Source: Acidimicrobiia bacterium
GTDB taxonomy: Bacteria; Actinomycetota; Acidimicrobiia; IMCC26256; PALSA-610
Reading direction: 5' to 3'
NCBI GenBank assembly: GCA_038209365.1
Contig: JBBQXS010000017.1
Span: forward strand, 7,111 to 71,110
DNA: 64,000 nucleotides
Shown here: piece by piece, positions 726 to 16,383 of the stretch
How positions within the stretch are numbered: the first letter of the stretch is position 1
Layout of the letters: every line of letters begins with the position of its first letter
Notes under the pieces: model-generated
What the model saw: only the letters and a program-made list of their open reading frames with translations
Databases searched by the model: none
What the model was told of the DNA's origin: nothing
Program-made: the position numbers and the translations under genes

Positions 726-1484
726 TCAGGTCGGGATCGCGGGGGTGGTCGTGTCGAGGAACTCGATGAGTGCGTCGACTGCCTCGCGCACCGGACCGGC
801 AAGCGTGCCCACGGCCGCACCCGCGCGGTCGGCGTCGGCAACCGCCGGTTCGTAAGGAATGACGCCGCACAACTCGACGCCGTACTCGGCGCACGTGTCG
901 GCGAAGAACGCGACGTCGTCGGGAAGACGCGCCTTGTTGCCCAACCCGTACGTGCGCGGGATCCCGAGCTCGTCGGCGAGGGCTTGGGTCCGCGCCGCGG
1001 TCACGACCGACTTCCGACTCGGTTCCATCACCACGACGAGAATGTCGGCGTGGGCCAGCGTGCCGCCCGATCGGCTCAAATGTTCGAGACCAGCTTCCAT
1101 GTCGACGATGGCAACGTCGGCATGGTCCTCGATAGCCATGCCGAGCAGGCTGCGGACCGCGGCGTGGTGCCCGCACGTGCATCCCGCGCCCGCCTGGTCC
1201 ACACGCATTGCAGACAGGAGGCGCGGGCCGGCCGGTGTCACGCGTCCGTATTCGCGCAGCAATGCGTCGGCGCCGAGCGTGCCCGAGCCCACCGCGAGGT
1301 TGCGCGGAATGACGGGGATCGCTTCGGTCTCGGCCAGCGACAGGCCGAGCGAGATGCCGAGGTTGGGGTTCGAGTCGGTGTCGACGGCGATGACCCGCTG
1401 TCCGGCGGCTTCGAAGCCCCGCGCCACCAGCGCAGCCACGGTGGTCTTCCCAACGCCGCCTTTGCCGACGATCCCCAACTTCAT
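726..1484 (-). CDS. CooC/MinD-family P-loop NTPase with intact CxC metal motif
   Basis: MKLGIVGKGGVGKTT Walker A, DTDSNPNLG, GAGCTCG motif, VDMEAGLEHL. GAGGAGG Shine-Dalgarno lies upstream of the ATG at 1484. Confidence 0.85.
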   Translation of the reverse strand: MKLGIVGKGGVGKTTVAALVARGFEAAGQRVIAVDTDSNPNLGISLGLSLAETEAIPVIPRNLAVGSGTLGADALLREYGRVTPAGPRLLSAMRVDQAGAGCTCGHHAAVRSLLGMAIEDHADVAIVDMEAGLEHLSRSGGTLAHADILVVVMEPSRKSVVTAARTQALADELGIPRTYGLGNKARLPDDVAFFADTCAEYGVELCGVIPYEPAVADADRAGAAVGTLAGPVREAVDALIEFLDTTTPAIPT

Positions 1485-1541
1485 CGTGCTGCCTCCTCGA
1501 TCCTTCCGAGTGTTGCACGCCCAACAAGGCGCCGGTGCCTC

Positions 1542-2330
1542 GTGACGCCGGCACGAATCGCGTTCATCGGCAAGGGCGGCGCCGGGAAGTCGGTGATCGC
1601 GGGCACCTTCGCCCGGCTGCTCGGCCGTCAGGGCACCCCGGTGCTCGCAGTGGACTCGGATCCCATGCCGGGCCTTGGGTTCTCGCTCGGCGTCCCTGGT
1701 GTCGACGCCCCGCTGCCGGACGACGCGCTCGAAGACGACGCGCCCGGTCCCGACGGGCGGCCCCAACCGGCGCGGCTGCGGCTCCCGCCGGTCGAGGCCA
1801 CCGAACGGTACGCGGCCGCGGCTCCTGACGGCGTGCGGTTCTTGCAGTTCGGCAAGTTGCGGGGCCACGTGCGCGAGCTTCAGCGTTCCCAGCAGGTGTT
1901 CCGCCGCATCATCGATGGGATGCGATCGGAGGGCTGGCACGTGATCGGCGACCTTCCGGGCGGCACTCGCCAGCCGTTCTTCGGGTGGGGTGACTTCGCC
2001 GACACTGTCGTCGTGGTGGCCGAGCCGACCGCGGCCTCGCTGCTCACCGCGCGCCGGCTCGCCAACCTCACCCGCTCGGACGCCGCGCCCGCTCGTCTGG
2101 TCGTCGTCGCCAACAAGGTGCGCCGCGCCGCCGAGGTCGATCGGGTGGCGGACCGCAGCGGTCTCGAGGTCGTCGGCGCCGTGCCGGACGACCCCGCGGT
2201 CCGTGCCGCCGACCGCGCGGGCCGGGCACTGCTCGACGTCGGCGCCGACAGCGACGCAGTACGCGCAATCGCCGACCTGGTAGCGCATCTGGTGGAGGCG
2301 CCATCGTCCGCAACCGACCCGGACGACTGA
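1542..2330 (+). CDS. CooC/ParA-like P-loop NTPase lacking the CxC motif
   Basis: GTG start; IAFIGKGGAGKS Walker A, VDSDPMPGLG, VVVAEP, VVVANKV. No Cys at the position of the paralogs' CxC. Confidence 0.75.
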   Translation: MTPARIAFIGKGGAGKSVIAGTFARLLGRQGTPVLAVDSDPMPGLGFSLGVPGVDAPLPDDALEDDAPGPDGRPQPARLRLPPVEATERYAAAAPDGVRFLQFGKLRGHVRELQRSQQVFRRIIDGMRSEGWHVIGDLPGGTRQPFFGWGDFADTVVVVAEPTAASLLTARRLANLTRSDAAPARLVVVANKVRRAAEVDRVADRSGLEVVGAVPDDPAVRAADRAGRALLDVGADSDAVRAIADLVAHLVEAPSSATDPDD

Positions 2331-2382
2331 TCACTACTCGCATTCTGCATGTACCTGCGGCAGACTGCCCGAGGAGGACTCG

Positions 2383-2637
2383 ATGGTCGGTTGGTGGATC
2401 GTCAACGCCGCGGTGCTCGTCGTCGTCGTCCCCGTCGTCGTCCTGCTCGCGAACCGCGTGATCCGCGCCGGCCTCGAGATCAACCGGTACGCGGAGGACA
2501 TCCTCGAGCACGGCGTCGGTATCGCCGCCAATCTCGAGCCCGTCCCTGCGCTGGTCGAAACCCGAGACCTGGTGGCAACGGCCACCGGCCATGCCGTCGC
2601 GTACGTCACCGCGCTCCGACGAATGCTCGCGAGGTAG
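2383..2637 (+). CDS. small single-pass membrane protein (N-terminal TM helix plus helical tail)
   Basis: GAGGAGGA SD before the ATG. Hydrophobic WWIVNAAVLVVVVPVVVLL segment. Tail shares AEDIL with the protein at 10204-10452. Confidence 0.6.
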   Translation: MVGWWIVNAAVLVVVVPVVVLLANRVIRAGLEINRYAEDILEHGVGIAANLEPVPALVETRDLVATATGHAVAYVTALRRMLAR

Positions 2638-2643
2638 GACGCG

Positions 2644-2922
2644 ATGTCGGCGGCCGCCATCGTCTCGCTCGTGTTGGTCGGCGTGTTGGTCGCCGCTCTC
2701 GCGTTCTATCTGATCTGGGTGGTCTTCATCTTGCGCCGGGCCGTCGACACGCTGGGCAAGGTGACATTCGGCGTGCGGGCGATCGCGTACCGCACCGCGC
2801 CCATCGGCGACCTTGTGACCGACATCAACGCCAACCTGAACGCGGTGGCCGACGCGCTCGAAGGGCTGACCGCGCCGCCCGCCGCGGACACGCCGACCGA
2901 GATCTCTACGGGCACGCGATGA
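2644..2922 (+). CDS. small single-pass membrane protein, paralog of 10709-10972
   Basis: N-terminal TM helix. KVTFGVRAIAYRTAPIG...INANL..VADALEGL aligns with KVSFGVRAIETQCAPIG...INGQL..VAGALEKL. Confidence 0.7.
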   Translation: MSAAAIVSLVLVGVLVAALAFYLIWVVFILRRAVDTLGKVTFGVRAIAYRTAPIGDLVTDINANLNAVADALEGLTAPPAADTPTEISTGTR

Positions 2923-2945
2923 TCGAGGGAGGAGTAACGCCGACG

Positions 2946-3119
2946 ATGCCGGTCGAACTCTGCTGTGCGGACGTCGGGCTCGCCTGCCGCCACGTGACCA
3001 AAGCCGACAACGCGGAGGATCTCGTCGCCAAGGTCGCCGAGCACGCGCGCGACGCGCACGGCGTCGAGCTCAACCAAACGTTGATCGACTACGCCACCAC
3101 CAAAGTCCGCTCGTCCTGA
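2946..3119 (+). CDS. DUF1059-like small Cys/His metal-binding protein
   Basis: GGGAGGAG SD, then the ATG. MPVELCCADVGLACRHV...AEHARDAHG matches the remembered DUF1059 pattern (CxDxGxxC...H..xxHG). It lies 12 nt upstream of the hydrogenase small subunit. Confidence 0.6.
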   Translation: MPVELCCADVGLACRHVTKADNAEDLVAKVAEHARDAHGVELNQTLIDYATTKVRSS

Positions 3120-3131
3120 TTCGAGGAGCAC

Positions 3132-4451
3132 ATGGCAACGCGTCCCGCCCGGTCCCCGGCCGCGGATCTTCTCGACCTGCTCGGGCCGGTCGACAAATTC
3201 CACGACCACGACGTGCTCGGCGACTTCGGCATGCCGACGCGCGCGTCGATGGAGCAGATGCTTGCGCCGGTCGCGACCGTCGGGGCGCACTCCAAGATCG
3301 GCCCGCTCGAGAAAGTCCACGCGTTCTGGCTCGCGGGCATGAGTTGTGACGGCTGTTCGGTCGCGGTGACCGGCGCCCAGGCGCCGTCGGTCGAGAGCCT
3401 CGTGCTCGGCGCGCACCCGGGCCTCCCGCAAGTGATCCTGCATCACCCGGTGTTGAACGTGGAGTCGGGCCCGGCGTACATGCGCGCCCACGAGATGGCG
3501 TTCGCGGGTGAGCTCGATGCGCCGTACGTCGTGATCTTGGAAGGATCGGTCGCCGACGAGACGATCGCCGCGCGGGCCGGCGGCTACTGGTCGGGCCAGG
3601 GCGAAGAGCCATGGGGACTCGGCGGCGAACTGCGGACGGTCTCGACCGCCGAGTGGATCGCGCGCCTCGCGCCGGGGGCCGCCGCCATGCTCGCCATCGG
3701 CACGTGCGCGACGTGGGGAGGCATCCCGGCCGCCGAAGGAAACCCGACCGGCGCGATGAGCATGATGGACTTCTTGGGCAAGGACTACCGCAGCGCGCTC
3801 GGTGTGCCGGTGATCAACGTGCCGGGGTGTCCGCCGATCGGTGACAACTTCACCGAGACCGTCGCGGCGGTCCTGTACTTCCTGCAAGGTTTTGGTCCGT
3901 TGCCCGAGTTCGACGAACTTGGTCGGCCGGCATGGCTGTTCGGCGAGACCGTGCACCGCCATTGTGTGCGCGGCGCGTACTACGAAGAAGGCACCTACGC
4001 CAAGGAGTTCGGCGACCCCGAGTGCCTCGTGGAGATCGGTTGCTGGGGCCCGGTCGTCAACTGCAACATCACCTCGCGCGGGATGATCAACCACGTCGGC
4101 GGCTGCATGAACTCCGGCGGCGCGTGCATCGGCTGCACGATGCCGGGGTTCCCCGACAAGTTCACGCCGTTTTACAAGCGGCCCCCGGGCTCGGCCGTCT
4201 CCACCGCCGCCAGCCGGCTCATCGGCAGCATGATCCGGCCGCTGCGGAAGGTCACGAACTCGCACCTTAATCGGGAGGTGCGCTGGGACCATGAAGACGA
4301 GGTGCCCACCGGCTGGGCCACCGAGAACTCCGGACCCACCCTCACGGCCAACGTCGCCCACAAGTTCTACGACCGGCTCCGCCGATCGAACGACCACGCC
4401 AAGGGTCGGGGCGGCGAGTTCGGCAAGACCTCGACCCCGCGAAAGAGCTGA
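3132..4451 (+). CDS. [NiFe]-hydrogenase small subunit, no twin-arginine signal
   Basis: FeS ligand motifs GMSCDGCS, GTCATWGG, PGCPP, HRHCVRG, CWGPVVNCN, GGCMNSGGACIGC. GAGGAG SD. No RRxFxK motif in the N-terminus. Confidence 0.93.
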   Translation: MATRPARSPAADLLDLLGPVDKFHDHDVLGDFGMPTRASMEQMLAPVATVGAHSKIGPLEKVHAFWLAGMSCDGCSVAVTGAQAPSVESLVLGAHPGLPQVILHHPVLNVESGPAYMRAHEMAFAGELDAPYVVILEGSVADETIAARAGGYWSGQGEEPWGLGGELRTVSTAEWIARLAPGAAAMLAIGTCATWGGIPAAEGNPTGAMSMMDFLGKDYRSALGVPVINVPGCPPIGDNFTETVAAVLYFLQGFGPLPEFDELGRPAWLFGETVHRHCVRGAYYEEGTYAKEFGDPECLVEIGCWGPVVNCNITSRGMINHVGGCMNSGGACIGCTMPGFPDKFTPFYKRPPGSAVSTAASRLIGSMIRPLRKVTNSHLNREVRWDHEDEVPTGWATENSGPTLTANVAHKFYDRLRRSNDHAKGRGGEFGKTSTPRKS

Positions 4452-4457
4452 CGCGCC

Positions 4458-6359
4458 ATGTGCTTCAAGAACTTGCCCATCGAGTTCGACGACGACGGCC
4501 GGGCGCGCCTCAAGGAAGGCATCCCCGACCCGTACTCGATGATCAGCTCGCGTCCGCGCGTCGACATCACCGACGTCGAACGCGAAGAGCAGATCAAGCG
4601 GCTCATGGCCCGCAACGGTCACATCAAAGACATCAACATGGACCCGGTCACCCGCGTCGCGGGCGCGCTCGCGGTGCACATCACCGCCGACCTCGAAAAG
4701 GGCGAGCACCTCGACGCGCGCGCCCAGGCAACGCTGTTCCGCGGCTACGAGGTGATCCTGATGGGTCGCGACCCGCGCGACGCCATCTTCATCTCGTCGC
4801 GCGCGTGCGGGGTGTGCGGCGGTGTGCACAGCCACTGCTCCGCGTACGCGATCGAGATGGCGATGGGGTTGGCCCCGCCGCCGATGGGGACCGTTGTGCG
4901 GAACCTGGCCGAGGCCGCCGAGATGGGCTACGACAACCCGTTGCACCTCTACTTGTTGGCGGGCCCCGACTACTCCGAATCGGTCGTACGTGCGGTCAAT
5001 CCCGAGTTGTGGCCCAAGGCCGAGAAGTGGCTGTGTCCCGGCGCGGCGCACCACGGGTTCCGCACGATGGCCGATCTGATGACCGCGCTCAACCCGCTCA
5101 CCGGCGACCTGTACCGCGAGGGTCTCGACTTCACGCGGCTGTCGCGGGAGATGTTCGTCGTTCTCTACGGCAAGTATCCGCACCCCCAGGGCGTCGTGCC
5201 CGGCGGCGTGTCGAGCACGGTGACGCTGCAGACGCTGAACGAGTACCACTCCAAGCTCGGACGCATCTTCGACTACGCGCAGCGGATGCTCGCGGTGTGG
5301 AACGACATCCCCGAGTTCTTCTACGAGTGCGACGACCGCTACCGCCGCATTGGCGCGCGCCCAATGAACCTCGTCGACACCGGCTTCTGGGACGACCCGT
5401 ACGCGTACGACGCGACGTACGCGAACTGCGACGAGTGGGGGCAGCGCCGGTGGTCGACGCCGGGCGTCGTGATCGACGGCGAGCTCGTCACCTCGCGGCT
5501 GACCGACATCAACGTGGGGTGGGAAGAGTTCGTCGACCACTCCTACTACGACGAGTGGGACGGCAGCCGCTACCGCACCGACGACCTCGGCAACCCGCTC
5601 AGCCCGTACCACCCGTGGAACAAGCAGACGCTGCCCCGACCCGGCGGCAAGAACTGGAAAGAGAAGTACACGTGGGCGTGCACGCCGCGCTGGGACCGCC
5701 AGGTGGTGGAAGCGGGCGCATACGCGCGGCTGTTCACGACCGCCATGGCACAGAAGCTGCCGGCCAATCCCTTCATCGAAGCGACCGGGTCCAGTCTGCG
5801 CATGTTGGTGCCGAAAGGCCTCACCGGCGAAGCGGAAGTCGAGTGGCACGTGCCAGAGTCGTGGAACGCGCTCGAGCGCAACCGAGGCCGCGCCTTCCAC
5901 TATCTCTTCTCACAGCTCGTCGGTCTCAACACGTTATTGCAGGCCTACGACCTGATGAAGCAAGGCGAGACGCGCGTCGCGGCCGTGACCGCCGACGAGC
6001 TCGACCGCCACATTCCCAAAGACGAAGTGCGCAGCGTCGGATGGTGGGGCGCGGGCCGGGGCTATCTCACCCACCACATGGTGATGGAGAAAGGCCGCAT
6101 CGCGAACTACCAGATCTGCACGCCCTCGACGATCAACGCGTCACCACGCGACCCGTTCGACCAACCCGGCCCGTACGAAGAAGCCGTCATGAACACGCCG
6201 ATCCTCGAGGAGTTCGACGATCCCGGGCGATTCACGTCGATCGACATGCTGCGCGCGATCCGCAGCTTCGACCCGTGCATGCCGTGCACCACCCACGTCG
6301 ACACGGGCGACGGCACGGTCGTGCGCGAGGTGAACACCTGCTCGTGCGGCGCTGACTGA
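4458..6359 (+). CDS. [NiFe]-hydrogenase large subunit
   Basis: RGYE-x15-SRACGVCGGVH (L1) and FDPCMPCTTH (L2) give four Ni-ligand Cys. NASPRD is present. A 20-aa C-terminal tail follows the His. Confidence 0.95.
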   Translation: MCFKNLPIEFDDDGRARLKEGIPDPYSMISSRPRVDITDVEREEQIKRLMARNGHIKDINMDPVTRVAGALAVHITADLEKGEHLDARAQATLFRGYEVILMGRDPRDAIFISSRACGVCGGVHSHCSAYAIEMAMGLAPPPMGTVVRNLAEAAEMGYDNPLHLYLLAGPDYSESVVRAVNPELWPKAEKWLCPGAAHHGFRTMADLMTALNPLTGDLYREGLDFTRLSREMFVVLYGKYPHPQGVVPGGVSSTVTLQTLNEYHSKLGRIFDYAQRMLAVWNDIPEFFYECDDRYRRIGARPMNLVDTGFWDDPYAYDATYANCDEWGQRRWSTPGVVIDGELVTSRLTDINVGWEEFVDHSYYDEWDGSRYRTDDLGNPLSPYHPWNKQTLPRPGGKNWKEKYTWACTPRWDRQVVEAGAYARLFTTAMAQKLPANPFIEATGSSLRMLVPKGLTGEAEVEWHVPESWNALERNRGRAFHYLFSQLVGLNTLLQAYDLMKQGETRVAAVTADELDRHIPKDEVRSVGWWGAGRGYLTHHMVMEKGRIANYQICTPSTINASPRDPFDQPGPYEEAVMNTPILEEFDDPGRFTSIDMLRAIRSFDPCMPCTTHVDTGDGTVVREVNTCSCGAD

Positions 6360-6363
6360 CATC

Positions 6364-7122
6364 GTGACCGGGTGGACCCTGGTCGGCGGGGTCGGCCAGC
6401 TGTTCCAGGGCGACCTCGACGTCGGTCGGCTGGCGGTCGACGCGCTCGCGGCCGCGGACCTCGGCCCGCACGTGCTCGTCGAGGAGCTGCATTACGGCGC
6501 GGTCGCAGTCGCCCAACGACTCCAAGAGCTCGATCCGATCGGGCTCGTGCTCGTCGGCGCCGAAGTCCGAGGGCGTATGCCGGGGACGGTGGAACGACGG
6601 CGCGTCCAACCGTTCGACAGTGTCGAGCCGGAGGAGGCCCAGCGCGCCGTCGCCGAGGCCGGCACCGGATACGTCGATATCGACCTCGTCATCGACGTCG
6701 CGCGCGCCTTCGGCGCGTTGCCGGACCGGACGGTTGTCGTCGCGGTCGAGCCGCTGACCGTGGGCCCGGGAGTGGAGCTGTCCGAACCCGCCCGACGCGG
6801 ACTCGACCGCGCGGTCGCGTTGGTACGCGAGGAGGCCGCGCGCGCACCGGTCCTCGAGCTTGCCGACCGGCTGCGGCGCGTCGTCGCCGACCCGGCACGG
6901 CTGGAACCGAGCGCCGCGCTGGACGCGCTGCACTCACTGCTGCGCGAGCTCGCGGTGCTCGACGCCGATGGTCGTTGGGGTCACACGTTCCGGTGGCGCG
7001 ACCGTCTGCGGCAAGCCATTTCCGACGGCGACACCGGCGCAGGCATGGACCATCTCGACTGGGGATTGTGGTGGGCGCTCATCGAGGCGCTTGATCGGTT
7101 GGAGGCGGCCGAGTCGGCGTGA
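6364..7122 (+). CDS. hydrogenase maturation protease-like protein, divergent, with C-terminal extension
   Basis: LVGGVGQLFQGDLDVGRLAV resembles the GxGNxxxxDDGxG N-terminus of HupD/HybD-type peptidases. About 90 extra C-terminal residues. Starts 4 nt after the large subunit stop. Confidence 0.6.
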   Translation: MTGWTLVGGVGQLFQGDLDVGRLAVDALAAADLGPHVLVEELHYGAVAVAQRLQELDPIGLVLVGAEVRGRMPGTVERRRVQPFDSVEPEEAQRAVAEAGTGYVDIDLVIDVARAFGALPDRTVVVAVEPLTVGPGVELSEPARRGLDRAVALVREEAARAPVLELADRLRRVVADPARLEPSAALDALHSLLRELAVLDADGRWGHTFRWRDRLRQAISDGDTGAGMDHLDWGLWWALIEALDRLEAAESA

Positions 7123-7867
7123 CGTCGTAACCGGAGAGGTCAGGCGGCTGGTCGATGTCGCCAACGGCCGGCTCGAGGATGCCGAGATGTTGCGGCCGAA
7201 TCGCGACGCGGCTTCCGCGTGCCGTCGTCACGACGAGCGCGCCGTCAGCCAAGCACGCGCTCGCCTCCCCCTCGGTCATCGGGCCACCCGGTCCGAGCGG
7301 AATGAGCCGAGCCCGCACCCGCTGTCCCAACGTCGTGCACCGCGCGGTGACGGTGGCGAGCACTGTGTCGGGATCCTGAGCGAGGCGGGCCTCGATCGCG
7401 TCGGCGGCGCGGGCGAGCAGTGGACCGCGCGGCGGTTCGACGCCGCGCAGCCACACGTTGATCACCGCCCAGGTCAATCCGTCGGGACCGAGCTCCGACT
7501 CGACGCCGACGGCCCCGGCCAGTTCACCGTCGCGCCAGACCTCGTCGGGCCAGTGCACCTCGCCACCGGCGAGCGCGTCCGCCACGCCGGCCACCGCGAC
7601 CAGATAGAGCCATCCCTCGCGCTCGGCGGGCAACGGCGGATGCACGACGAGCGAGAAGCCCACGTCGCGCTCGGGGACGAGCGCCCACGGCCAGCCGGCC
7701 CGCCCTCTCGGCGACGCCTGGTAGCCGGCCACGACCACTGCACCATCGGGGGCGCCCGCCCGCGCCCACGCCTGGGCGTCAGCGGCCGTCGAGAGGAGCG
7801 CCGGGTAGACCCGAGCCGGCCGCTCCGCCAACCACTGCGCCAACGCCTCGGGCGAGAGATCGTTCAT
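7079..7867 (-). CDS. biotin/lipoate protein ligase (BPL_LplA_LipB)-like protein
   Basis: BirA-catalytic-domain-like layout (QASPRGRAGWPW, HWPDEVW, GAVGVE). Its ATG overlaps the stop of the upstream TPR gene (ATGA). Confidence 0.5.
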   Translation of the reverse strand: MNDLSPEALAQWLAERPARVYPALLSTAADAQAWARAGAPDGAVVVAGYQASPRGRAGWPWALVPERDVGFSLVVHPPLPAEREGWLYLVAVAGVADALAGGEVHWPDEVWRDGELAGAVGVESELGPDGLTWAVINVWLRGVEPPRGPLLARAADAIEARLAQDPDTVLATVTARCTTLGQRVRARLIPLGPGGPMTEGEASACLADGALVVTTARGSRVAIRPQHLGILEPAVGDIDQPPDLSGYDVTPTRPPPTDQAPR

Positions 7868-9060
7868 CGGCGCGGGTCGATCCCGGTCTCGGCCGCGAAG
7901 ACGGCCTCGAGCCGGAACAGTTGCGGCGGCGGGAACGTGACGATCGCGTCGCGCACGACGCGGGCGAACGCGTTGCGATTCGCCGCGACGCGCCATGCCA
8001 TGCGCACGAGCTGCGTCATCAGGTCCGGCGGCGCTTCGAGCAGCACGTGCAACCACGCCTCTGCGACCGCGGGCCCGCGATCACCTTCGATGGCGTCGAC
8101 GATGGCGGTCACCCCCGTGTCGCCAATGTCGGCGGTGGCGCCGAGTCGGAGCCAGCGCGCCGCTTCCTCGCGGATGACGGCGACCCATCGTTCCTCGGCC
8201 TCGTCGCCCAAGACCGCAACGAGGTCGTCGCCCGGTGGTCCGAGCCGCGCGAGCACGGCCGCCGCCTGGTCGCGCACTGGACCCGCCTCGTGCGCACCGG
8301 CCAGCACCTGCGCCGCTGCGAGCCGGGCGCGTGGACGATCGCCTGCGGTCTCGTACGCAAGCGCGAGGTTCGCCTTCGCCATCGCGTGCGCAACCGGGCG
8401 GATGCCGACCGGATGGGCAGCGACGGCGCGCCGAAGTGTCGTGACCGCGCCGGCCGTGTCGCCGGTTGCCAGCAAGGCCAGACCCAGCGCGTTCGCCGCC
8501 TGGCCCCGCCCGGCGTCGGGGCCGGTGCGCTCGGCTCGGTCGAGCGCGTCGGACAGAACCGCCACCGCTTCGTCATGGCGACCGGACGTCATCAACGCGG
8601 CGCCCTGCTCGCGCACGGCCGCCGCGGCCTGGGCACGGACTCCTTGGCGATCGAAGGTCTCGGCCGCGAGCGCCAGGTCCGCGGCCGCGGTGTCGGCCTC
8701 GCCGAGCTGCAACCGAACCAGTCCGAGGTTGAACAGCGCCGCGGCCTGCTCGAGTGGAAGCCCGGCCAACTGAAAGGCTTCCGCGGCGTCGGCGAACGCC
8801 GCGGCACTGTCCTCGAGATGTCCGGTCGCGCGGCGGGCCGCGCCCCAGAGGTTGCGCGCCTTCGCCTGCTCCGCCGGCAGCTTCTCGAAGAGTGCGATCG
8901 CGTGGGCGAGCTCCGCCGCGGCCGCTTCCGGTTCATTGCGCTCGAGCAACATCGCCCCGAGGTGAAAACGGGCGGTCGCGTGCTGCACCGGATAACGATC
9001 CGCGGGATGGCGATCGAGCCGCCGTCGGAGCTCGGCAACGGCTTCGTCGACTGGGGGCAC
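7864..9060 (-). CDS. TPR-repeat protein
   Basis: Ala/Leu-rich helical repeats (AAAELAHAIALFEKL, AAALFNLGLVRLQLGE, ANALGLALLATGD, AKANLALAYETAG). Start uncertain: GTG at 9060 or 9084. Confidence 0.6.
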   Translation of the reverse strand: MPPVDEAVAELRRRLDRHPADRYPVQHATARFHLGAMLLERNEPEAAAAELAHAIALFEKLPAEQAKARNLWGAARRATGHLEDSAAAFADAAEAFQLAGLPLEQAAALFNLGLVRLQLGEADTAAADLALAAETFDRQGVRAQAAAAVREQGAALMTSGRHDEAVAVLSDALDRAERTGPDAGRGQAANALGLALLATGDTAGAVTTLRRAVAAHPVGIRPVAHAMAKANLALAYETAGDRPRARLAAAQVLAGAHEAGPVRDQAAAVLARLGPPGDDLVAVLGDEAEERWVAVIREEAARWLRLGATADIGDTGVTAIVDAIEGDRGPAVAEAWLHVLLEAPPDLMTQLVRMAWRVAANRNAFARVVRDAIVTFPPPQLFRLEAVFAAETGIDPRR

Positions 9061-9075
9061 CGCCGTATCGTACGG

Positions 9076-9579
9076 ATGGTGCACGCACTGGTCGCCTGCT
9101 TCGGCAACCTGCTCAGAGGCGACGACGGCTTCGGTCCCGCGGTCGCGGCACGCCTGCTGGAACAGGGCCTGCCACCCGGCGTCAGCGTGCTCGACGTGGG
9201 CATCGGTGGCATCCACCTCGTGCACGAGCTGCTCGAGCCGGTCGACGTGTTGGTCGTCGTCGACGCGGTCGCACGGGGGCGTCCTCCCGGCACGGTCCTC
9301 GTCATGCGGCCTGACGTCGTCGACGTGCATGGCCTCTCACCGACCGAACAACGCGACCAGCTGGCCGACATGCATTACGCGACGCCGGCCCGGGCCCTCA
9401 TGCTCGCGCGCGCGCTCGGGGTGCTCCCGACTGACACCTGGCTCGTCGGCTGCGAGCCGCTCGACGCGGAACGCGTCGGAGAAGGGCTTTCCGCGCCCGT
9501 GTCAAGCGCGCTCGATACGGCCGCGGCCGAGATCCACCGCGTCCTCGATGAGGCCGCTCGCGCTCGCGGCCCGAACTAA
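9076..9579 (+). CDS. hydrogenase maturation endopeptidase (HupD/HybD family)
   Basis: MVHALVACFGNLLRGDDGFGPAV canonical N-terminal motif. About 167 aa, the typical size. Confidence 0.85.
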   Translation: MVHALVACFGNLLRGDDGFGPAVAARLLEQGLPPGVSVLDVGIGGIHLVHELLEPVDVLVVVDAVARGRPPGTVLVMRPDVVDVHGLSPTEQRDQLADMHYATPARALMLARALGVLPTDTWLVGCEPLDAERVGEGLSAPVSSALDTAAAEIHRVLDEAARARGPN

Positions 9580-10127
9580 GTGCGTCGGCCCAGCGCGACC
9601 GGCGTGATCACCGGCGGCGGATGCGGCGCGGCATCGTCGAGCTCGACGTCGACGCTGCTGAAGCCGGGGAACCCGTCCCGCAGCGCGGTCTCGATCTCGT
9701 CGCGCAGCGTCTGCGCCGACGCGGTACACCCCGCGCAGGAGCCGCCCATTCGCAGCTGCACGACGCCGTCGGTGACGTCGACCACCGCCACGAACCCGCC
9801 GTGCGATTCGATGTACGGCCGGGCCGCGGCCAAGGCCGCTTCAACCTCGGCGCGCTCGTCTACACCGACGGCATAGGCGTCGAAGAGCCAGGCCACGGCC
9901 GGGTCTTCCTCGCGGAGGGCGGCCACGCGTTCGGCGCCGAGCACGTGTTCGAGACGCCGCAGCGCGAACCGGTGCAGCGCGTCGACACCGTCGAGCAGTT
10001 CGTACGCGATACCGCTCAGCTCCGGGTCCGCGTCCTCGAGGGCCGCGAGCAGCTGCTCGAGGCGCTGCAGCAGGTCGTCGAGGTCGTTCACCGTCCCAAG
10101 CTTACGTTCGCGACCCCTGCTCGCCAC
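9576..10127 (-). CDS. NifU/Nfu C-terminal-domain Fe-S scaffold-like protein
   Basis: GGFVAVVDVTDGVVQLRMGGSCAGCTAS...TL matches the Nfu CxxC domain. An alternative GTG start lies at 10091. Confidence 0.75.
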   Translation of the reverse strand: MASRGRERKLGTVNDLDDLLQRLEQLLAALEDADPELSGIAYELLDGVDALHRFALRRLEHVLGAERVAALREEDPAVAWLFDAYAVGVDERAEVEAALAAARPYIESHGGFVAVVDVTDGVVQLRMGGSCAGCTASAQTLRDEIETALRDGFPGFSSVDVELDDAAPHPPPVITPVALGRRT

Positions 10128-10203
10128 CTGTCACTAGATGTAAGGTGCATTCACGGTCCACCCTTGCAGCCGAGTGCTCGAGAGCGCTCAGGGGAGGCGT
10201 GTC

Positions 10204-10452
10204 GTGAGTGGTTGGGTACTCGCCTGGATCATCGGCGCCGCCGTCGTCGTCGTGGTGGTCACGCTGCTCCTGTTGATGATCCGGGGCGCGGCGCGCGCCG
10301 CCGCCAAGGCGGAAGACATTCTGGCGGCGCTCGAAGAGACGCAGACCAACACCACCGCGCTGTGGAAGGTCGCACAGACGAATGATGCAGCCGCGCGGAT
10401 AGTCGCCGCCGCCGCGAAGGCCCGGCACGTGCTCGAAGGAGACGCCCGGTGA
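10204..10452 (+). CDS. small single-pass membrane protein
   Basis: GGGGAGG SD 6 nt before the GTG. TM segment WVLAWIIGAAVVVVVVTLLLLMI. Tail shares AEDIL with 2383-2637. Confidence 0.55.
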   Translation: MSGWVLAWIIGAAVVVVVVTLLLLMIRGAARAAAKAEDILAALEETQTNTTALWKVAQTNDAAARIVAAAAKARHVLEGDAR

Positions 10453-10709
10453 GTACGAACGCCTACTGGGGCATCACGCTCCTGCTCGGTCTGGTTGTTG
10501 CGGTGGTGGCGGTCGTGCTGCTCGAGATCTTCCTGCGCCAGGTCCGTCGCATCGAGCGAGGAGCCGATGCCATCTGGACCACCGGCAAGCTCGTCGCGCA
10601 GAACACTGCAACGACGTGGCTGCTGGCCGAGACCGGGAACCGCCTCGACGCATTGATCGACGAGGCGGGCCGTCACGTCGAGCTCCTCACCTCCGGGGAG
10701 GAACGCTGA
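10449..10709 (+). CDS. small single-pass membrane protein
   Basis: GTG start overlaps the upstream stop. TM segment WGITLLLGLVVAVVAVVLL followed by a helical tail. Confidence 0.6.
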   Translation: MSTNAYWGITLLLGLVVAVVAVVLLEIFLRQVRRIERGADAIWTTGKLVAQNTATTWLLAETGNRLDALIDEAGRHVELLTSGEER

Positions 10710-10972
10710 TGCGCGAGCTGCTCATCGCGGGATCGCTGGTCGAGATCGCTCTCGTGGTCCTCGTCCTCGCCGTGTACCTCGTCCGCATCGCGCGGTCGCT
10801 CCGGTCGACGGCCGCCGCCTTGGCGAAGGTGAGCTTCGGCGTGCGTGCCATCGAAACCCAGTGTGCGCCGATCGGCCCGAGCGTCGTGCGCATCAACGGA
10901 CAGCTCGAGATCGTCGCGGGCGCCTTGGAGAAACTCGCGGTGCTGGCCGACGGGGCAGGCAGTCGTGCCTGA
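10709..10972 (+). CDS. small single-pass membrane protein, paralog of 2644-2922
   Basis: TGATG overlap with the upstream gene, a TM helix, and the conserved KVSFGVRAIE..APIG block. Confidence 0.7.
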   Translation: MRELLIAGSLVEIALVVLVLAVYLVRIARSLRSTAAALAKVSFGVRAIETQCAPIGPSVVRINGQLEIVAGALEKLAVLADGAGSRA

Positions 10973-11366
10973 CGTCTCGCCCCCCAAGTCGGCCGCGCTG
11001 CGTGCCATGTACTGGCGCAGCGAAATCCTTCAGGTCATGTACTGGCTCCAAGGTGAAGGGCTCGGTGACGTCGTCGACGCGCCGTTGCTCGAGCGCTTCC
11101 TCGGCGTCGACGCATCCAACGGCGTCACGTATCTCGACCGTCTCGTCGTCGAGGGCTACCTCATCCGCCAGGGTGAGTGGTACGCGTTGTCCGACACCGG
11201 TATGGCGGAGGGCGCGACCGAATTCGCGATGGCCTTCTCGGATCTGACGCGACCCGCGCACGGTGAATGCAGCGACGACTGCTGGTGCCACGCCTCGGTC
11301 GAAGAAGCCGAAGCGTGTCTCGCGGGCCGCCAACATGATCATCACCACGACGGCCACGACCACTAA
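10965..11366 (+). CDS. winged-helix-like protein with Cys cluster and His-rich C-terminal tail (putative metal-binding)
   Basis: GTG overlaps the upstream stop by 8 nt. HGECSDDCWCH...C motif. C-terminus is QHDHHHDGHDH. Confidence 0.6.
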   Translation: MPDVSPPKSAALRAMYWRSEILQVMYWLQGEGLGDVVDAPLLERFLGVDASNGVTYLDRLVVEGYLIRQGEWYALSDTGMAEGATEFAMAFSDLTRPAHGECSDDCWCHASVEEAEACLAGRQHDHHHDGHDH

Positions 11367-11716
11367 TGCGCATCGTCGACAGCACCGTTCTGCCGAGAGC
11401 CCATCTGCGCGTGGTGCTGCTTTTGCTCTTGCGCGCCGGCTCCTCCCATGGCTACGACCTCCTCGAAGAGACGCGTCGTCTCGGGATGCGCACCGCGGAA
11501 GCAGCCGGTGTGTATCGCACGCTGCGCGCGCTCGAGCTCGACAACTGCGTGACGTCGTGGTGGGAACCGTCGCAGTCGGGGCCGGCGCGCCGCACGTACG
11601 CGATCACGCCCGCAGGTGAGTTCGCATTGGCGGAAGGGATACAAGAGCTCGACGGGCTGCGGCGGTCGCTCAACCGGCTGCTCGCCCGCTATCGCGACAT
11701 GGACCGGGACGGGTGA
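11366..11716 (+). CDS. PadR-family transcriptional regulator
   Basis: LLLLLRAGSSHGYDLLEE...GVYRTLRALELDNCVTSWWE...RRTYAITPAGE is the typical PadR wHTH. TAATG overlap with the upstream gene. Confidence 0.85.
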   Translation: MRIVDSTVLPRAHLRVVLLLLLRAGSSHGYDLLEETRRLGMRTAEAAGVYRTLRALELDNCVTSWWEPSQSGPARRTYAITPAGEFALAEGIQELDGLRRSLNRLLARYRDMDRDG

Positions 11717-12471
11717 GGGTTGCCGTCGCCGGGAAGGGCGGCGCCGGCAAGACAACGATCGCGGCAACGGCAGCGCGTTTGGGTGCTCGCTCCGGTCGTC
11801 CGGTTGTCGCCGTCGACGCCGATAGCAACCCGAACCTCGCGGTCGCGCTCGGTGCCGGCGCGCCCGGGGTTGCGGTTGTGACGCCGAGTCTTCCGCCGTC
11901 GCTCGTGTCACGGCGCCTCGACCGGACGGGCTTCGTGTGTCCGCTCGACGCGGTGCTCGCGGAGTACGCGATCTCCGCGCCCGACGGGGTGCGGTTGGTT
12001 GCGATGGGCGCGCCGGGCCACGCCGAGGAGGGATGCCTGTGCTCCGCCCATGCGGTGGTGAGCACGCTGCTCGCGGCGCTCGGCGAGCGACCCGACACGC
12101 TCACGGTCGTCGATATGGAAGCGTCGCCCGAGCACTTGAGTCGAGGCACCGCCCGTCACGCCGACGTGCTGCTGCTTGTCGCCGAGCCCTACTACCGCGC
12201 GCTCGAAGCGGTCGGTCGGCTGGCCGACCTCGCCCGCGAACTTCCGATCGCGCGCGTGGCGGTGGTCGCGAACAAGGTTCGTTCCGAAGACGACGACGCG
12301 GCAATCTCCGCCTATTGCGATCGACACGGGTTGGAACACGTCGCCACCATTGCGTGGAGCGAGGATGCGATGGCCGCCGATCGTGCCGGTCGGAGCGTGC
12401 TCGACACTGCGCCAGACGGCGCCCTGGTGCGCTCGGTCGACGAACTGCTCACGTGCATCGCGGGCCGCTGA
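11713..12471 (+). CDS. CooC/MinD-family P-loop NTPase with CxC motif
   Basis: VAVAGKGGAGKTT, VDADSNPNL, EEGCLCSAH, VDMEASPEHL, VVANKV. GTGA overlap with padR. Confidence 0.85.
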   Translation: MRVAVAGKGGAGKTTIAATAARLGARSGRPVVAVDADSNPNLAVALGAGAPGVAVVTPSLPPSLVSRRLDRTGFVCPLDAVLAEYAISAPDGVRLVAMGAPGHAEEGCLCSAHAVVSTLLAALGERPDTLTVVDMEASPEHLSRGTARHADVLLLVAEPYYRALEAVGRLADLARELPIARVAVVANKVRSEDDDAAISAYCDRHGLEHVATIAWSEDAMAADRAGRSVLDTAPDGALVRSVDELLTCIAGR

Positions 12472-12472
12472 C

Positions 12473-12745
12473 ATGTGCCTCGGCATCCCCGGCCAGATCG
12501 TCGAGATCATCGACCCGGCCCTGCACCGCGCCGTGCTCGATGTCGAAGGCGTACGCCGGGAAGTGAACATCGGCCTGCTCGTCGACGACACCGACCCGGT
12601 CGCGGTGGGCGATTGGGTGCTCGTGCACGTGGGGTTCGCGATGGCGAAGATCGACGCCGACGAGGCCGCCCGTACCCTCGCCTTCGTGCGCGAGCTCGAG
12701 GAGTTCATCGACGAGATCGATCTCATGGATGGCGGAACTGCGTGA
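12473..12745 (+). CDS. hypC: hydrogenase maturation chaperone HypC/HupF
   Basis: MCLGIPGQIVEI N-terminus and VGDWVLVHVGFAM core. Confidence 0.92.
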   Translation: MCLGIPGQIVEIIDPALHRAVLDVEGVRREVNIGLLVDDTDPVAVGDWVLVHVGFAMAKIDADEAARTLAFVRELEEFIDEIDLMDGGTA

Positions 12746-13890
12746 GGTTCGTCGACGAGTACCGCGATCCGGTCGCGGCACGCGCGACATTGGCCGAGAT
12801 CGAGCGACTCGCCGCTGAGCAGCCGGCGCGCGCGTTCATGGAAGTGTGCGGAGGGCACACCCACACCATCTACCGCCACGGCATCGAACATCTCCTGCCG
12901 GCGTCGGTCGAGCTGGTGCACGGTCCCGGGTGCCCGGTCTGTGTGATCCCGATGGGCCGCATCGACGACGCCATCGCAGTTGCCCACCAGCCTGGCGTGA
13001 TCTTCACCTGCTTCGGCGACATGCTGCGCGTGCCCGGCTCCAACGGGAGCCTTCTGCGCGCAAAGGCGAAGGGTGCCGACGTCCGGGTCGTGTACTCGCC
13101 GCTCGACGCGCTTCGCCTGGCCGGTGAACATCCGGATCGGCCGGTGGTTTTCTTCGCGGTCGGGTTCGAGACCACCGCCCCGTCGACCGCGCTGACGCTT
13201 CGTCGCGCGCGCGAATTAGGGACGCATAACTTCTCCGTCTTCTGCAACCACGTCACGATCGTCCCGCCGCTGAAGGCGATCCTCGACTCCCCCGACCTCC
13301 GACTCGACGGCTTCCTCGGGCCCGGACACGTGTCGACGGTCATCGGCAACCGGCCGTATCGGTTCGTGCCCGAGCGGTACGGCAAGCCGCTGGTGACGAC
13401 CGGTTTCGAGCCCCTCGACATCCTCCAGGCGATCGTGATGCTCCTGTGCCAGCTGCGTGACGGGCGGTGCGAGGTCGAGAACCAATACACGCGGGTGGTG
13501 CGGGACGAAGGAAACCCGCGCGCGCTCGAGGTCATCAGGGAGGTCTTCGAGCTGCGACCCCATTTCGAGTGGCGCGGCTTGGGCTTCATCAGCCAGAGCG
13601 CGTTGAAGCTCCGCGCCGAGTTCGCGCCCTGGGACGCGGAGGTCGCGTTCGACGTCCCCGGTGTGCGCGTCGCGGACCCCAAGGCGTGTCAGTGCGGCGA
13701 GGTCTTGAAGGGCGTGCTCAAGCCATGGCAGTGCAAGGTGTTCGGAACCGCCTGTACGCCGGAAACGCCGATCGGCACGTGCATGGTCTCCTCCGAAGGT
13801 GCATGCGCGGCGTACTACAACTTCGGTCGTCGCATCCCGACTCGTTCGACCCGCGTCGGTGTCGCACGCTCGGCCATCGCTGACCGTTAA
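12742..13890 (+). CDS. hypD: hydrogenase maturation protein HypD
   Basis: CGGHTH, GPGCPVCV, FETTAP, GPGHVS, PxHVSxxxG-type blocks and C-terminal ...SSEGACAAYY. GTGA overlap with hypC. Confidence 0.95.
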   Translation: MRFVDEYRDPVAARATLAEIERLAAEQPARAFMEVCGGHTHTIYRHGIEHLLPASVELVHGPGCPVCVIPMGRIDDAIAVAHQPGVIFTCFGDMLRVPGSNGSLLRAKAKGADVRVVYSPLDALRLAGEHPDRPVVFFAVGFETTAPSTALTLRRARELGTHNFSVFCNHVTIVPPLKAILDSPDLRLDGFLGPGHVSTVIGNRPYRFVPERYGKPLVTTGFEPLDILQAIVMLLCQLRDGRCEVENQYTRVVRDEGNPRALEVIREVFELRPHFEWRGLGFISQSALKLRAEFAPWDAEVAFDVPGVRVADPKACQCGEVLKGVLKPWQCKVFGTACTPETPIGTCMVSSEGACAAYYNFGRRIPTRSTRVGVARSAIADR

Positions 13891-13892
13891 CG

Positions 13893-14642
13893 ATGTCCGC
13901 CGCGCCGTTCGTCGATGCCTCGGGCCTCGACATCGACGCGGCGCAGGGTCGCGACCTTGCCTCCGCGTCGTTCTCACTGGCGCGCCGCTTCGCGGCCGGC
14001 GCGACGATGTGGTGCATCGCGCCGGCATGGCCGCAGCACGCGCGTCATGTTGCAGTCGAGTTCGTGCATCCCGTGACCATCGGCAAACGCGCCCTTGCGG
14101 CCGTGGCCGTCACGGGCCCGCAGCCGGTAGCGGAGTTGCGATCGGTTGTCCGGGCCGGCGACGTCTTGTGCGCGATCTCTACCGCCGACGAATCGATCGT
14201 CGTCGACGCTCTACGTCGCGCCCCCGCGTGGGGTCTCGAGACACTCTGGATCGGCTGCGGCCCCACTCAACCGCGAGCCGGTGCCGCCGGCCATGTGTTG
14301 TGGGTCGACGACCGTGACGGACGTGCCCCGTACGACGGCAGCATCGTGCTGCGCTACCACGTGTTGTGGGAGCTCACGCATGTGTGCATCGACCACCCCG
14401 GGCTCATGCGCCCGCAAGCCGAAGCCGCAGACGGGGCCGATACCTGCATCACCTGCTCGGACGAGGGCAGCATCGGCGAGGTCGTCGACGGCGTTGCGGA
14501 CGGCGACGCGAGAGTACGCACGCCGCGCGGAGTCGAGGTGATCGACGTCACGCTTGTGGCCCCGGTGCGAGGCGGAGATCTCCTCCTCCTGCACGCGGGC
14601 GTCGCAATCACGCGGATCGAATCGGAGCACGCCGGTGGCTGA
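13893..14642 (+). CDS. degenerate SIS-like domain fused to a HypC-like OB domain
   Basis: The N-terminal half parallels GmhA-type SIS, but GNGGS is replaced by APAWP; GDVLCAISTADES is retained. The C-terminal CITCSDEGSIGEVV...GGDLLLLHAGVAI resembles HypC. Confidence 0.65.
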   Translation: MSAAPFVDASGLDIDAAQGRDLASASFSLARRFAAGATMWCIAPAWPQHARHVAVEFVHPVTIGKRALAAVAVTGPQPVAELRSVVRAGDVLCAISTADESIVVDALRRAPAWGLETLWIGCGPTQPRAGAAGHVLWVDDRDGRAPYDGSIVLRYHVLWELTHVCIDHPGLMRPQAEAADGADTCITCSDEGSIGEVVDGVADGDARVRTPRGVEVIDVTLVAPVRGGDLLLLHAGVAITRIESEHAGG

Positions 14643-15288
14643 AGGAACGGACTTTCTGTATCCCTTCATCGACGGTGACGAGCGCGATGCCGCACCGCTC
14701 CTCGCGGATCTCGCGGCGTCAGCGCGCGTCAAGTCGGCCGAGAGCAGGCGTACCCGTACGCGCGACATCGAGGGCAACGAGGAGACGCTGGCCGCGGCCG
14801 CACGGGCGATGGCCGACCGCTTCGTAGCGAACGGCCGACTGTTCACCTTCGGCGACGGCGGCAGCTCCACCGACGCTGCGCTGCTCGCAAACCTGTTCGC
14901 CGATCCCATCTCCGGGCCGTCGCTGCCCGCGCGTTGCCTCGTGGAGGACCCCGCAGTGATCACCGCACTCGGCAACGACGTCGGCTTCGAGCTCGTGTTC
15001 TCGCGGCAGCTCATCGCGCACGGACACGCCGGCGACATTGCGCTGGGCTTTTCCACGAGCGGCAACTCCCCCAACCTGTTGCACGCGTTCGCCGAAGCGC
15101 GCGGGCGCGGAATGCTCACAATCGGATTGAGCGGCTACGACGGCGGGGGGATGCGCGAAGCTCTCGACCACTGTCTGATCGTCGGTTCCGACAGTGTGCA
15201 CCGGATCCAGGAGACCCAGGCCGCGATCGGCCTCGCACTGTGGAAGCGCGTGCAATCCCTGCTGCCTTCGGCGGCGCGTGATGGCTGA
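14635..15288 (+). CDS. SIS-domain (GmhA/phosphoheptose-isomerase-like) protein
   Basis: FGDGGSSTDAA, ALGNDVGFELVFSRQL, GDIALGFSTSGNSPN, IGLSGYDGG. 8-nt overlaps with both neighbours. Confidence 0.8.
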   Translation: MAEGTDFLYPFIDGDERDAAPLLADLAASARVKSAESRRTRTRDIEGNEETLAAAARAMADRFVANGRLFTFGDGGSSTDAALLANLFADPISGPSLPARCLVEDPAVITALGNDVGFELVFSRQLIAHGHAGDIALGFSTSGNSPNLLHAFAEARGRGMLTIGLSGYDGGGMREALDHCLIVGSDSVHRIQETQAAIGLALWKRVQSLLPSAARDG

Positions 15289-16378: not shown

Positions 16379-16383
16379 TACAC

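Follow-up and report, generated by a model that had tools for sequence, protein, structure and literature searches.

Five small genes in a 64-kb window of high-GC DNA (64-73% GC; contig JBBQXS010000017.1 of an Acidimicrobiia bacterium, the whole stretch being called the window below) probably form the counterpart, in actinobacterial group 1m (Hhm), of the HylTM1-5 accessory set known from high-affinity group 1l (Hyl) [NiFe]-hydrogenases, with tails that would tether the enzyme through an extension of its small subunit. The genes form two cassettes, A (A1 and A2) and B (B1, B2 and B3), on either side of the hydrogenase genes hydS and hydL, and each encodes a protein with a single transmembrane (TM) helix. 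The cytoplasmic tails would pack into hetero-oligomeric helical bundles, and these would dock close to the distal Fe-S cluster on the small subunit, at the C-terminal extension that is specific to this clade. Docking would hold an enzyme that lacks a twin-arginine translocation (Tat) signal and faces the cytoplasm at the inner face of the membrane, and H2-derived electrons would thus pass to the quinone pool with no cytochrome b subunit involved. This tethering or wiring role, which an earlier sequence-only reading of the window had put forward, appears supported as far as sequence analysis can go, and it is the same hypothesis already published for HylTM.

Coding potential, topology and operon structure

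All five open reading frames (ORFs) listed in the sequence-only reading were found in place on the forward strand: A1 at 2383-2637 (84 aa), A2 at 2644-2922 (92 aa), B1 at 10204-10452 (82 aa), B2 at 10449-10709 (86 aa, with a conserved IWTxGKxxAxNT motif) and B3 at 10709-10972 (87 aa, with an FGVRAIE motif). The GC content at codon position 3 was 0.83-0.91 compared to 0.41-0.49 at position 2, and between the window and the orthologous locus L081 there were 31-38 differences at codon position 3 and 4-14 at position 2. The comparison set consisted of the best 80 related hydrogenase loci from a genome scan, none of them from Bacteroidota, in which ORFs were called and searched with hidden Markov models (HMMs) built from the five proteins of the window. 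A total of 279 homologues were identified in 66 of the 81 sources (the window plus the 80 loci) and their trimmed length was uniform with a median of 82 aa. By these measures the five ORFs are real conserved genes under purifying selection.

Mean Kyte-Doolittle hydropathy of the most hydrophobic 19-residue segment was 2.5-3.1 in 273 short homologues, and lysine plus arginine residues numbered about 0 before the helix and 2.5-3.1 within the 15 residues after it. The tails had a median length of 56-64 aa and a stub of a few residues lay outside. By the positive-inside statistics the proteins are oriented N-out and C-in, which places the tail on the cytoplasmic side, the expected location of a Tat-less enzyme. 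Each protein consists of one N-terminal TM helix followed by a helical cytoplasmic tail of about 55-65 aa, as had been proposed from the letters of the window, and this shape is supported by hydropathy, by the positive-inside statistics and by the helices of an AlphaFold2 model of A2. The model was built from a 65-sequence alignment and had a predicted local distance difference test (pLDDT) score of 88.9; it shows two helices (residues 3-50 and 52-75), with the end of the chain disordered.

The 614 homologues of A2 were all unnamed or hypothetical proteins of soil Actinomycetota, with one homologue labelled 'uncharacterized protein YoxC' by one source. Pfam membership of the five proteins was considered and rejected, as the matches (DUF948, DUF7310 and TM or coiled-coil noise) were sporadic, below threshold and unreproducible across orthologues.

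The start and stop regions of the genes were tightly arranged. A1 begins with ATG and has the Shine-Dalgarno sequence GAGGAGGA, while the start codon of B1 is GTG, not ATG, and is located 7 nt after AGGGGAGG, a good Shine-Dalgarno sequence. Overlaps were found at the B1/B2 junction (GTGA), the B2/B3 junction (TGATG) and between the A2 stop and the start of a DUF1059 gene at 2919 (ATGA), and the B3 stop is overlapped by 8 nt by the gene for a Cys/His-rich protein (Hrich, 10965-11366). From these overlaps and Shine-Dalgarno positions, cassette A therefore heads an operon A1-A2-DUF1059-hydS-hydL. Cassette B heads a long operon comprising Hrich, PadR, a CooC-like ATPase, hypC, hypD, a HypC-domain protein, a SIS protein, hypE and hypF. 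No sixth copy of the TM families was found elsewhere in the window, which holds exactly five.

Correspondence to HylTM1-5 and locus layouts

The five proteins were matched to those encoded between hydS and hydL in the interposed-type loci L063 and L077. BLASTP E-values were 2e-11 and 2e-10 for A1 against TM4 of L063 and L077, 5e-11 and 4e-8 for B2 against TM2 of L077 and L063, 2e-11 and 2e-10 for B3 against TM3 of L063 and L077, and 4e-6 for B1 against TM1 of L077. A2 matched TM3 (4e-7) and TM5 (1e-5) of this set. Orthogroup HMMs separated the five families cleanly, for example with TM4 scoring 110 bits compared to about 31 for the others. The BLASTP matches together with the interposed gene order (B1-, B2-, B3-, A1- and A2-like) hence give B1 as the HylTM1 orthologue, B2 as HylTM2, B3 as HylTM3, A1 as HylTM4 and A2 as HylTM5. 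The assignments of all five also drew on orthogroup and synteny, that of B2 on the family consensus as well, and profile-profile comparison (hhalign) contributed for B1 and B3. In the window the TM genes are divided, with TM4-TM5-DUF1059 at the head of the structural operon and TM1-TM3 at the head of the regulator and maturation operon.

The small genes located between hydS and hydL in non-actinobacterial loci belonged to the same families. Five were interposed in L063, L071 and L077 and four in L064, L065, L070, L072, L074 and L079, while the TM genes of Acidobacteriota were just upstream of hydS. The order TM1-TM5 was kept in L063, L071, L077, the actinobacterial locus L036 and many metagenome contigs. 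In most actinobacterial loci TM3, TM2 and TM1 ran divergently from hydS, in many cases with Hrich and PadR after them, and the TM4-TM5-DUF1059 cassette was 4-6 kb away. Gaiellales/Thermoleophilia loci had the four-gene cassette TM1-TM4-TM2-TM3 only, and in L057 all five TM genes and DUF1059 were directly upstream of hydS. The all-co-directional layout of the window recurred in L081, L082, L091 and L140. The TM genes stayed with the hydrogenase clade across at least seven phylum-level groups while their position in the locus kept changing.

TM1-TM3 open an operon of overlapping reading frames that runs into Hrich, PadR, CooC and hypCDEF, both in the window and in most Actinomycetota, and the clusters are unusually rich in accessory genes. 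Such an arrangement would suit membrane-located assembly or maturation factors, for example a platform on which CooC, Hyp, NifU and TPR proteins load metal into HhmSL, and not subunits of the finished enzyme. This main rival to the tether is unlikely, as in other phyla all four or five genes occupy the place where structural subunits are classically encoded, within the hylS-hylL interval or immediately upstream of it, and TM4-TM5 head the structural operon in the window itself. The published AlphaFold3 model also docks the TM proteins on the mature dimer (PMC13554262). Tethering by subunits of the enzyme is further favored by the overlapping start and stop codons in the window and by the hylS-hylL position in other phyla, both in the style of stoichiometric subunits.

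The same neighborhood raises the possibility of a signalling or regulatory module, in which the single-pass proteins would sense the membrane or redox state and control PadR and Hrich in the manner of an anti-sigma factor or anti-repressor. TM1-TM3 are directly followed by Hrich, a Cys/His-rich winged-helix-like protein, and PadR in most actinobacterial loci, and with an extracytoplasmic part of only a few residues the sensing would have to take place within the membrane. This role is very unlikely because the non-actinobacterial TM genes stay between the structural genes with a PadR match in only 3 of 16, five paralogous copies would be unusual for a sensor, and there was no similarity to known anti-sigma families, the Pfam matches being at chance level.

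A third lineage (L083, L084 and L093) also carried the set. Its large subunit (624 aa) shares about 56-60% identity with every 1l and 1m large subunit compared, its small subunit has 408 aa and the two genes are adjacent. The TM4-TM5-DUF1059 and TM1-3 cassettes were close to those of the window, with a TM5 75% identical to A2. Because this lineage also has the TM set, the set is ancestral to the superclade as a whole.

Several loci featured additional or altered TM genes. Up to nine small TM genes, in four-, three- and two-gene cassettes, were located within 10 kb of one hydSL pair in some actinobacterial loci (L009 and L043). In L029 (7882-10422) and L043 (3582-6234), from Solirubrobacterales/Thermoleophilaceae, three consecutive genes beside a normal TM set encode proteins of 260-300 aa whose N-terminal TM and first helix match the TM4, TM3 and TM5 profiles. 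These proteins continue as arrays of 7-residue repeats (e.g. TAGEIDS, GSLVDTS) and look like stretched versions of the small TM proteins. In L071 (Gemmatales) a polytopic DUF417 (DoxX-related) protein (7921-8406, forward strand, E=8.5e-31) is encoded between TM2 and TM3 inside the hylS-hylL interval.

Two protein types

The sequence-only reading had described two paralogous cassettes whose last members were clearly homologous and whose first members shared AEDIL. A2 and B3 were indeed related by pairwise comparison (BLASTP E=8e-13, 54% identity over 46 aa), while the A1-B1 pair was marginal (E=0.057), and apart from A2-B3 all pairs were marginal by this approach and clear at the profile level. 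Profile-profile comparison with hhalign was performed at full length and with the TM segment removed. TM3-TM5 (B3-A2) gave probabilities of 99.6% and 99.3% respectively, TM1-TM2 (B1-B2) 98.8% and 96.3%, TM2-TM4 (B2-A1) 98.4% and 95.9%, and TM1-TM4 (B1-A1) 97.6% and 94.4%, so that kinship of the last members was confirmed at both levels and that of the first members at the profile level. TM1 had a weak link to TM3 and TM5 (94.7-96.2% at full length and 79-84% for the tails), and TM2 and TM4 had no hhalign match to TM3 and TM5 in the tail. The pattern therefore defines two types, with A1/TM4, B1/TM1 and B2/TM2 as type I and A2/TM5 and B3/TM3 as type II, and the two types possibly derive from one old superfamily. 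Two paralogous cassettes is thus a fair simplification of what is more precisely a type I-II arrangement in cassette A and a type I-I-II arrangement in cassette B. The existence of two paralogue types constrains structural models.

Association of the TM families with the hydrogenase

Starting from the hydrogenase, TM genes were present in the 66 of 81 sources mentioned above, including 15 of 15 non-actinobacterial loci that include HydL and 21 of the 25 full-flank actinobacterial loci (7 kb or more on each side), 13 of which contained all five types. No HylTM-like ORFs were found within 15 kb on either side of the large-subunit gene in three group 1h loci (Cupriavidus pHG1, Streptomyces and Mycobacterium).

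Starting from the TM proteins, seven out of seven members of the A2 family, picked for long contigs only, were located in [NiFe]-hydrogenase clusters. HydS or HydL was within the stretch in six of the seven, and the L085 stretch held maturation genes only. A metagenome scan anchored on TM2, seeded with a 4-sequence alignment, returned 47 loci, 36 with HydS or HydL and the other 11 on contigs of no more than 3.9 kb. Every TM-anchored contig of at least 5.8 kb carried hydrogenase genes or, in one case, maturation genes.

Among 1.84 billion representatives the type II profile matched 723 proteins, 210 of them at E<=1e-10, and most of the 150 matches listed were 80-130 aa. The families are small, and none was seen away from this hydrogenase type, whereas a wide spread in unrelated loci would have spoken against the sequence-only reading. 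A 1556-aa type II match (P0369) was discarded as a low-complexity repeat artefact. In two proteins of 243-288 aa (P0476 and P0501) the type II N-terminal module of TM and first cytoplasmic helix was fused to a C-terminal polytopic DUF4383 domain.

These counts bear on whether the genes encode generic small membrane or stress proteins of the DUF948/YoxC kind that merely neighbor the hydrogenase, or are spurious ORFs of high-GC DNA. The YoxC label noted above and weak DUF948 matches for A2 (18.7 bits, E=0.002) and B3 (14.0 bits, E=0.061) point in this direction. The DUF948 scores were far under the gathering threshold of 37.2 bits, however, and in orthologues from other phyla the match was absent or had an E-value of about 1, so that assignment to DUF948 (YoxC) was rejected. 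The family is also tiny and locus-specific, and non-coding ORFs are ruled out by the way differences are spread over codon positions and by conservation across phyla. The proposal is largely refuted and hardly credible.

The hydrogenase

The [NiFe]-hydrogenase small subunit (HhmS/HylS-like, 439 aa; 3132-4451, forward strand) was identified from Pfam and a PDB match to 5AA5_A, and the large subunit (HhmL, 633 aa; 4458-6359, forward strand) from Pfam PF00374. The two genes are adjacent with a 6-nt spacer between the end of hydS at 4451 and the start of hydL at 4458. The best solved relative for both subunits was the group 1h enzyme of Cupriavidus necator (5AA5), with E=2.7e-142 for the large and E=4e-108 for the small subunit.

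The large subunit was 38-41% identical to group 1h enzymes, 59-62% identical to non-actinobacterial 1l enzymes (Chloroflexota, Acidobacteriota, Planctomycetota and Verrucomicrobiota) and 71-94% identical to those of Actinomycetota, with more than 100 soil Actinomycetota proteins at 75-94%. All relatives with at least 71% identity were from Actinomycetota, and a neighbor-joining (NJ) tree separated the window clade from the 59-62% (1l) and 38-40% (1h) groups. As judged from sequence comparison, the hydrogenase of the window is a member of group 1m (Hhm), the actinobacterial sister clade of group 1l (Hyl), an assignment that rests on identity, the NJ tree and gene content, with the hhmL sequences of the paper that described 1m lying outside the comparison. 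Membership in group 1h was ruled out by the identity of about 40%, by CDGC in place of CDGD and by different neighbor genes. A plasmid collection contained 1h relatives only and none of 1l or 1m.

At residues ~69-72 of the small subunit is the motif CDGC where group 1h has CDGD, which is a proximal-cluster ligand position. In the 5AA5 structure the Asp of CDGD ligates the proximal cluster. The 1l preprint mentions 'a key substitution' at a proximal-cluster ligand (bioRxiv 10.1101/2020.08.06.239558). The C-terminal extension of the window small subunit (~394-439) contains HKFYDRLRRS, and the motif H(K/R)FYD.LRR was found in all 1l and 1m relatives and in none of 1h.

The small subunit had been read as Tat-less, which held true as no twin-arginine (RRxF-like) motif was found before the first cluster motif in HydS of the window or in 69 homologues. 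Likewise, in line with the suggested lack of a cytochrome b gene, no cytochrome b or Rieske protein was found among the window ORFs scanned (726-15288, with HypE, HypF, PadR and the third CooC-like gene outside the scan) or in the gene tables of related loci including L081, L082 and L091 of the same layout.

Comparison with described systems and proposed function

Ortiz et al. defined group 1l (Hyl), in which HylTM1-5 are placed between hylS and hylL (bioRxiv 10.1101/2020.08.06.239558). The actinobacterial 'group 1m' (hhmSL) was split off by Ray et al. in 2022, and the cluster was listed with a HybD peptidase, an Fe-S assembly protein, a CooC-type ATPase, a TPR protein, BirA, DUF1059 and two 82-92-aa single-TM proteins (PMC9561532). 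Ray et al. contrast these two small TM proteins with the five interposed ones of 1l, and TM1-TM3 are unmentioned in the text of the 1m description (PMC9561532). In two of the four parts of the table of metagenome-assembled genomes, hhmL was in Actinobacteriota only (Dermatophilaceae, Euzebyales and Acidimicrobiales) and hylL in Bacteroidota, Chloroflexota, Proteobacteria and Deinococcota (PMC9561532). Among enzymes that scavenge H2 in Antarctic and other desert soils, those of 1l and 1m are reported to be the most abundant (bioRxiv 10.1101/2020.08.06.239558, PMC9561532). No mention of group 1m or hhmL beyond Ray et al. 2022 was found in the literature searched.

The soil hydrogenase group with several short TM ORFs that the sequence-only reading had mentioned is real and is group 1l, and the window proteins are homologous, one to one, to the five interposed proteins of loci with the published HylTM1-5 layout. 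The window and the 1l loci share five short single-pass proteins in the locus of a Tat-less, 1h-related high-affinity hydrogenase, the same C-terminal extension of the small subunit and a proximal-cluster ligand position changed relative to 1h (Asp to Cys in the window). They differ in that the TM genes of the window are not between hydS and hydL, with TM4-TM5 upstream and TM1-TM3 about 3.8 kb downstream, and in that the large subunit is only 59-62% identical to interposed-type enzymes.

With the described group 1m the window shares adjacent S and L genes, an A1 (84 aa) and A2 (92 aa) that fit the 82-92-aa pair, an actinobacterial distribution and, by Pfam, the peptidase, Fe-S assembly protein, CooC-type ATPase, TPR protein and DUF1059. 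The paper counts two small TM proteins whereas the 1m-type loci studied here usually have five, with TM1-3 extra, and the 'two small proteins' are most plausibly TM4 and TM5 beside DUF1059. Group 1h enzymes (Hhy; HofKG, 5AA5) are similarly cytoplasmic without a Tat signal or cytochrome b and are the best solved match for both subunits, but they have about 40% identity, CDGD, no HKFYD extension, no HylTM-like ORFs (three loci) and their own accessory genes DUF5947, DUF6084 and HypA/B.

A conceptual parallel exists in another hydrogenase. HucM is reported (Grinter et al. 2023) to be the membrane-associated stalk of the group 2a hydrogenase Huc (PDB 7UTD). In both systems a non-catalytic helical scaffold would connect a high-affinity hydrogenase in the cytoplasm with the membrane and the quinone pool, no cytochrome b being involved. 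The two differ in having no sequence relationship (PDB profile search) and in HucM being one protein as opposed to four or five single-pass paralogues. An AlphaFold3 model published in 2026 for Hymenobacter HylSL with HylTM1-5 has tube-like scaffolds holding the cytosolic dimer on the membrane beside the HylS C-terminal extension (PMC13554262). Docking and wiring are proposed for the window proteins because of this model and the analogy to HucM.

A more elaborate version of the tether is rather unlikely. The tails would form alternating type I and type II helices in a hollow hetero-oligomeric barrel through which menaquinone would move out of the bilayer and up to the distal Fe-S cluster. Such a barrel would amount to the quinone-extraction stalk of Huc (HucM) invented a second time, independently and with several genes. 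The two-operon split in Actinomycetota would then reflect staged assembly, TM1-3 with the maturation machinery and TM4-5 and DUF1059 with the structural subunits, and the distinction between 1l and 1m would be one of gene order only.

Several observations weigh against the simpler tethering role. Co-transcription of cassette B with maturation genes is just as compatible with a role in assembly. Among all PDB chains, a profile search returned de novo designed antiparallel coiled coils (sc-apCC) only, matches that reflect helical-bundle composition and not homology, and Foldseek found no match with the AlphaFold2 model of A2. Group 1l was still called 'uncharacterized' in 2026 (PMC13554262). The four members in Gaiellales/Thermoleophilia, Chloroflexota and Acidobacteriota suggest a flexible stoichiometry. 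Homology to HylTM was established via loci of the published layout, with the named Hymenobacter roseosalivarius proteins (SMB94698-SMB94678) outside the comparison, and a protein search seeded with HydL of Chthoniobacterales (Verrucomicrobiota) had no named Hymenobacter entry among the matches listed. In addition, iterated HMMs and a hydropathy screen found no TM genes in the fetched stretch of L006, L038, L050 and L059 (full flank, 10 kb) or L069 (5.4-kb downstream flank), which indicates that physical linkage is not obligatory. In L005 (Haloechinothrix halophila) TM4 and TM5 were likewise not seen within 10 kb. The small subunits of at least L006, L011 and L069 keep the C-terminal motif, and in the loci without any TM gene the genes may therefore lie elsewhere in the genome.

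Already in the literature are, for 1l, the HylTM1-5 set and its AlphaFold3 tether model and, for 1m, DUF1059 and a pair of small TM proteins. Not found in print were the presence of all five in 1m and their mapping onto HylTM1-5 despite the split operons, and the reduction to two paralogue types and the third deep lineage (L083/L093) with the set are also added here. The window system is of a known kind (HylTM) in a described clade (1m), a rearranged copy, and the gain is incremental and for specialists. The five-protein set in 1m removes one stated difference between 1l and 1m, and the set bears on the question of how electrons pass from 1l and 1m enzymes to the respiratory chain when neither a Tat signal nor cytochrome b is present. 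Cultured carriers for a test of the tether include Pseudonocardia kunmingensis DSM 45301, P. nigra, Haloechinothrix halophila, H. salitolerans and Geodermatophilus chilensis (L005, L008, L009, L016 and L027).

Neighboring genes

The small DUF1059 protein (2919-3119, forward strand; Pfam PF06348, E=4.3e-11) is translationally coupled to A2, and its gene accompanied TM4-TM5 in most actinobacterial loci. Just 3' of hydL is a gene for a conserved 252-aa protein (6364-7122, forward strand) that is weakly HycI-like (Pfam HycI, E=0.11), and the position of this protein ('Prot2') after HydL was kept in nearly all related loci. A true HycI protease, the hydrogenase maturation endopeptidase (HycI/HupD; 9076-9579, forward strand; Pfam PF01750, E=9.8e-14), is encoded separately, and the 252-aa protein may be a degenerate paralogue of the protease that works as a chaperone.

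On the reverse strand are a 262-aa protein (7079-7867) that is a candidate for the BirA-homologue position of the 1m cluster, a TPR protein (7864-9060, start approximate; Pfam TPR_12, E=2.7e-11) and a NifU-like Fe-S assembly protein (9576-10091; Pfam PF01106, E=2.4e-18) divergent from cassette B. The BirA candidate was identified by position, with no Pfam match in the window, and the L085 protein at the equivalent position had a weak BPL_C match only.

The Hrich protein (133 aa; 10965-11366, forward strand) is encoded directly after TM3, is conserved in 1l and 1m loci and belongs to no Pfam family. Its sequence is rich in Cys in one segment (HGECSDDCWCH) and in His in the tail (HDHHHDGHDH), its homologues adjoined PadR or followed hydL in nearly all 1l and 1m loci, and it could be a nickel-responsive regulator or metallochaperone. 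The PadR-family regulator follows (11366-11716, forward strand), with orthologues annotated PF03551 in L081, L091, L092 and L094.

The rest of the cassette B operon extends from the CooC-like ATPase to hypF (11713-18675, forward strand), the hypE and hypF labels being given by reading the translations. It includes the CooC-like ATPase (11713-12471, forward strand), hypC (12473-12745, forward strand) and, between hypD and the SIS gene, a 249-aa protein (13893-14642, forward strand) in which only the C-terminal domain is HypC-like (E=2.3e-5). Four genes or fragments for CooC/CbiA-type P-loop ATPases were found at the locus (27-2330 and 11713-12471), while neither hypA nor hypB was recognised between 1 and 19 kb of the window. 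Related loci also held a Nik-like ABC transporter (SBP_bac_5, BPD_transp_1 and ABC_tran). For nickel insertion the system may depend on proteins of the CooC type, a possibility raised by Ray et al. (PMC9561532). About 450 bp past hypF is an IS240/IS6-type DDE transposase fragment (19125-19772, reverse strand; PF13610, E=7e-30) at the edge of the hydrogenase island.

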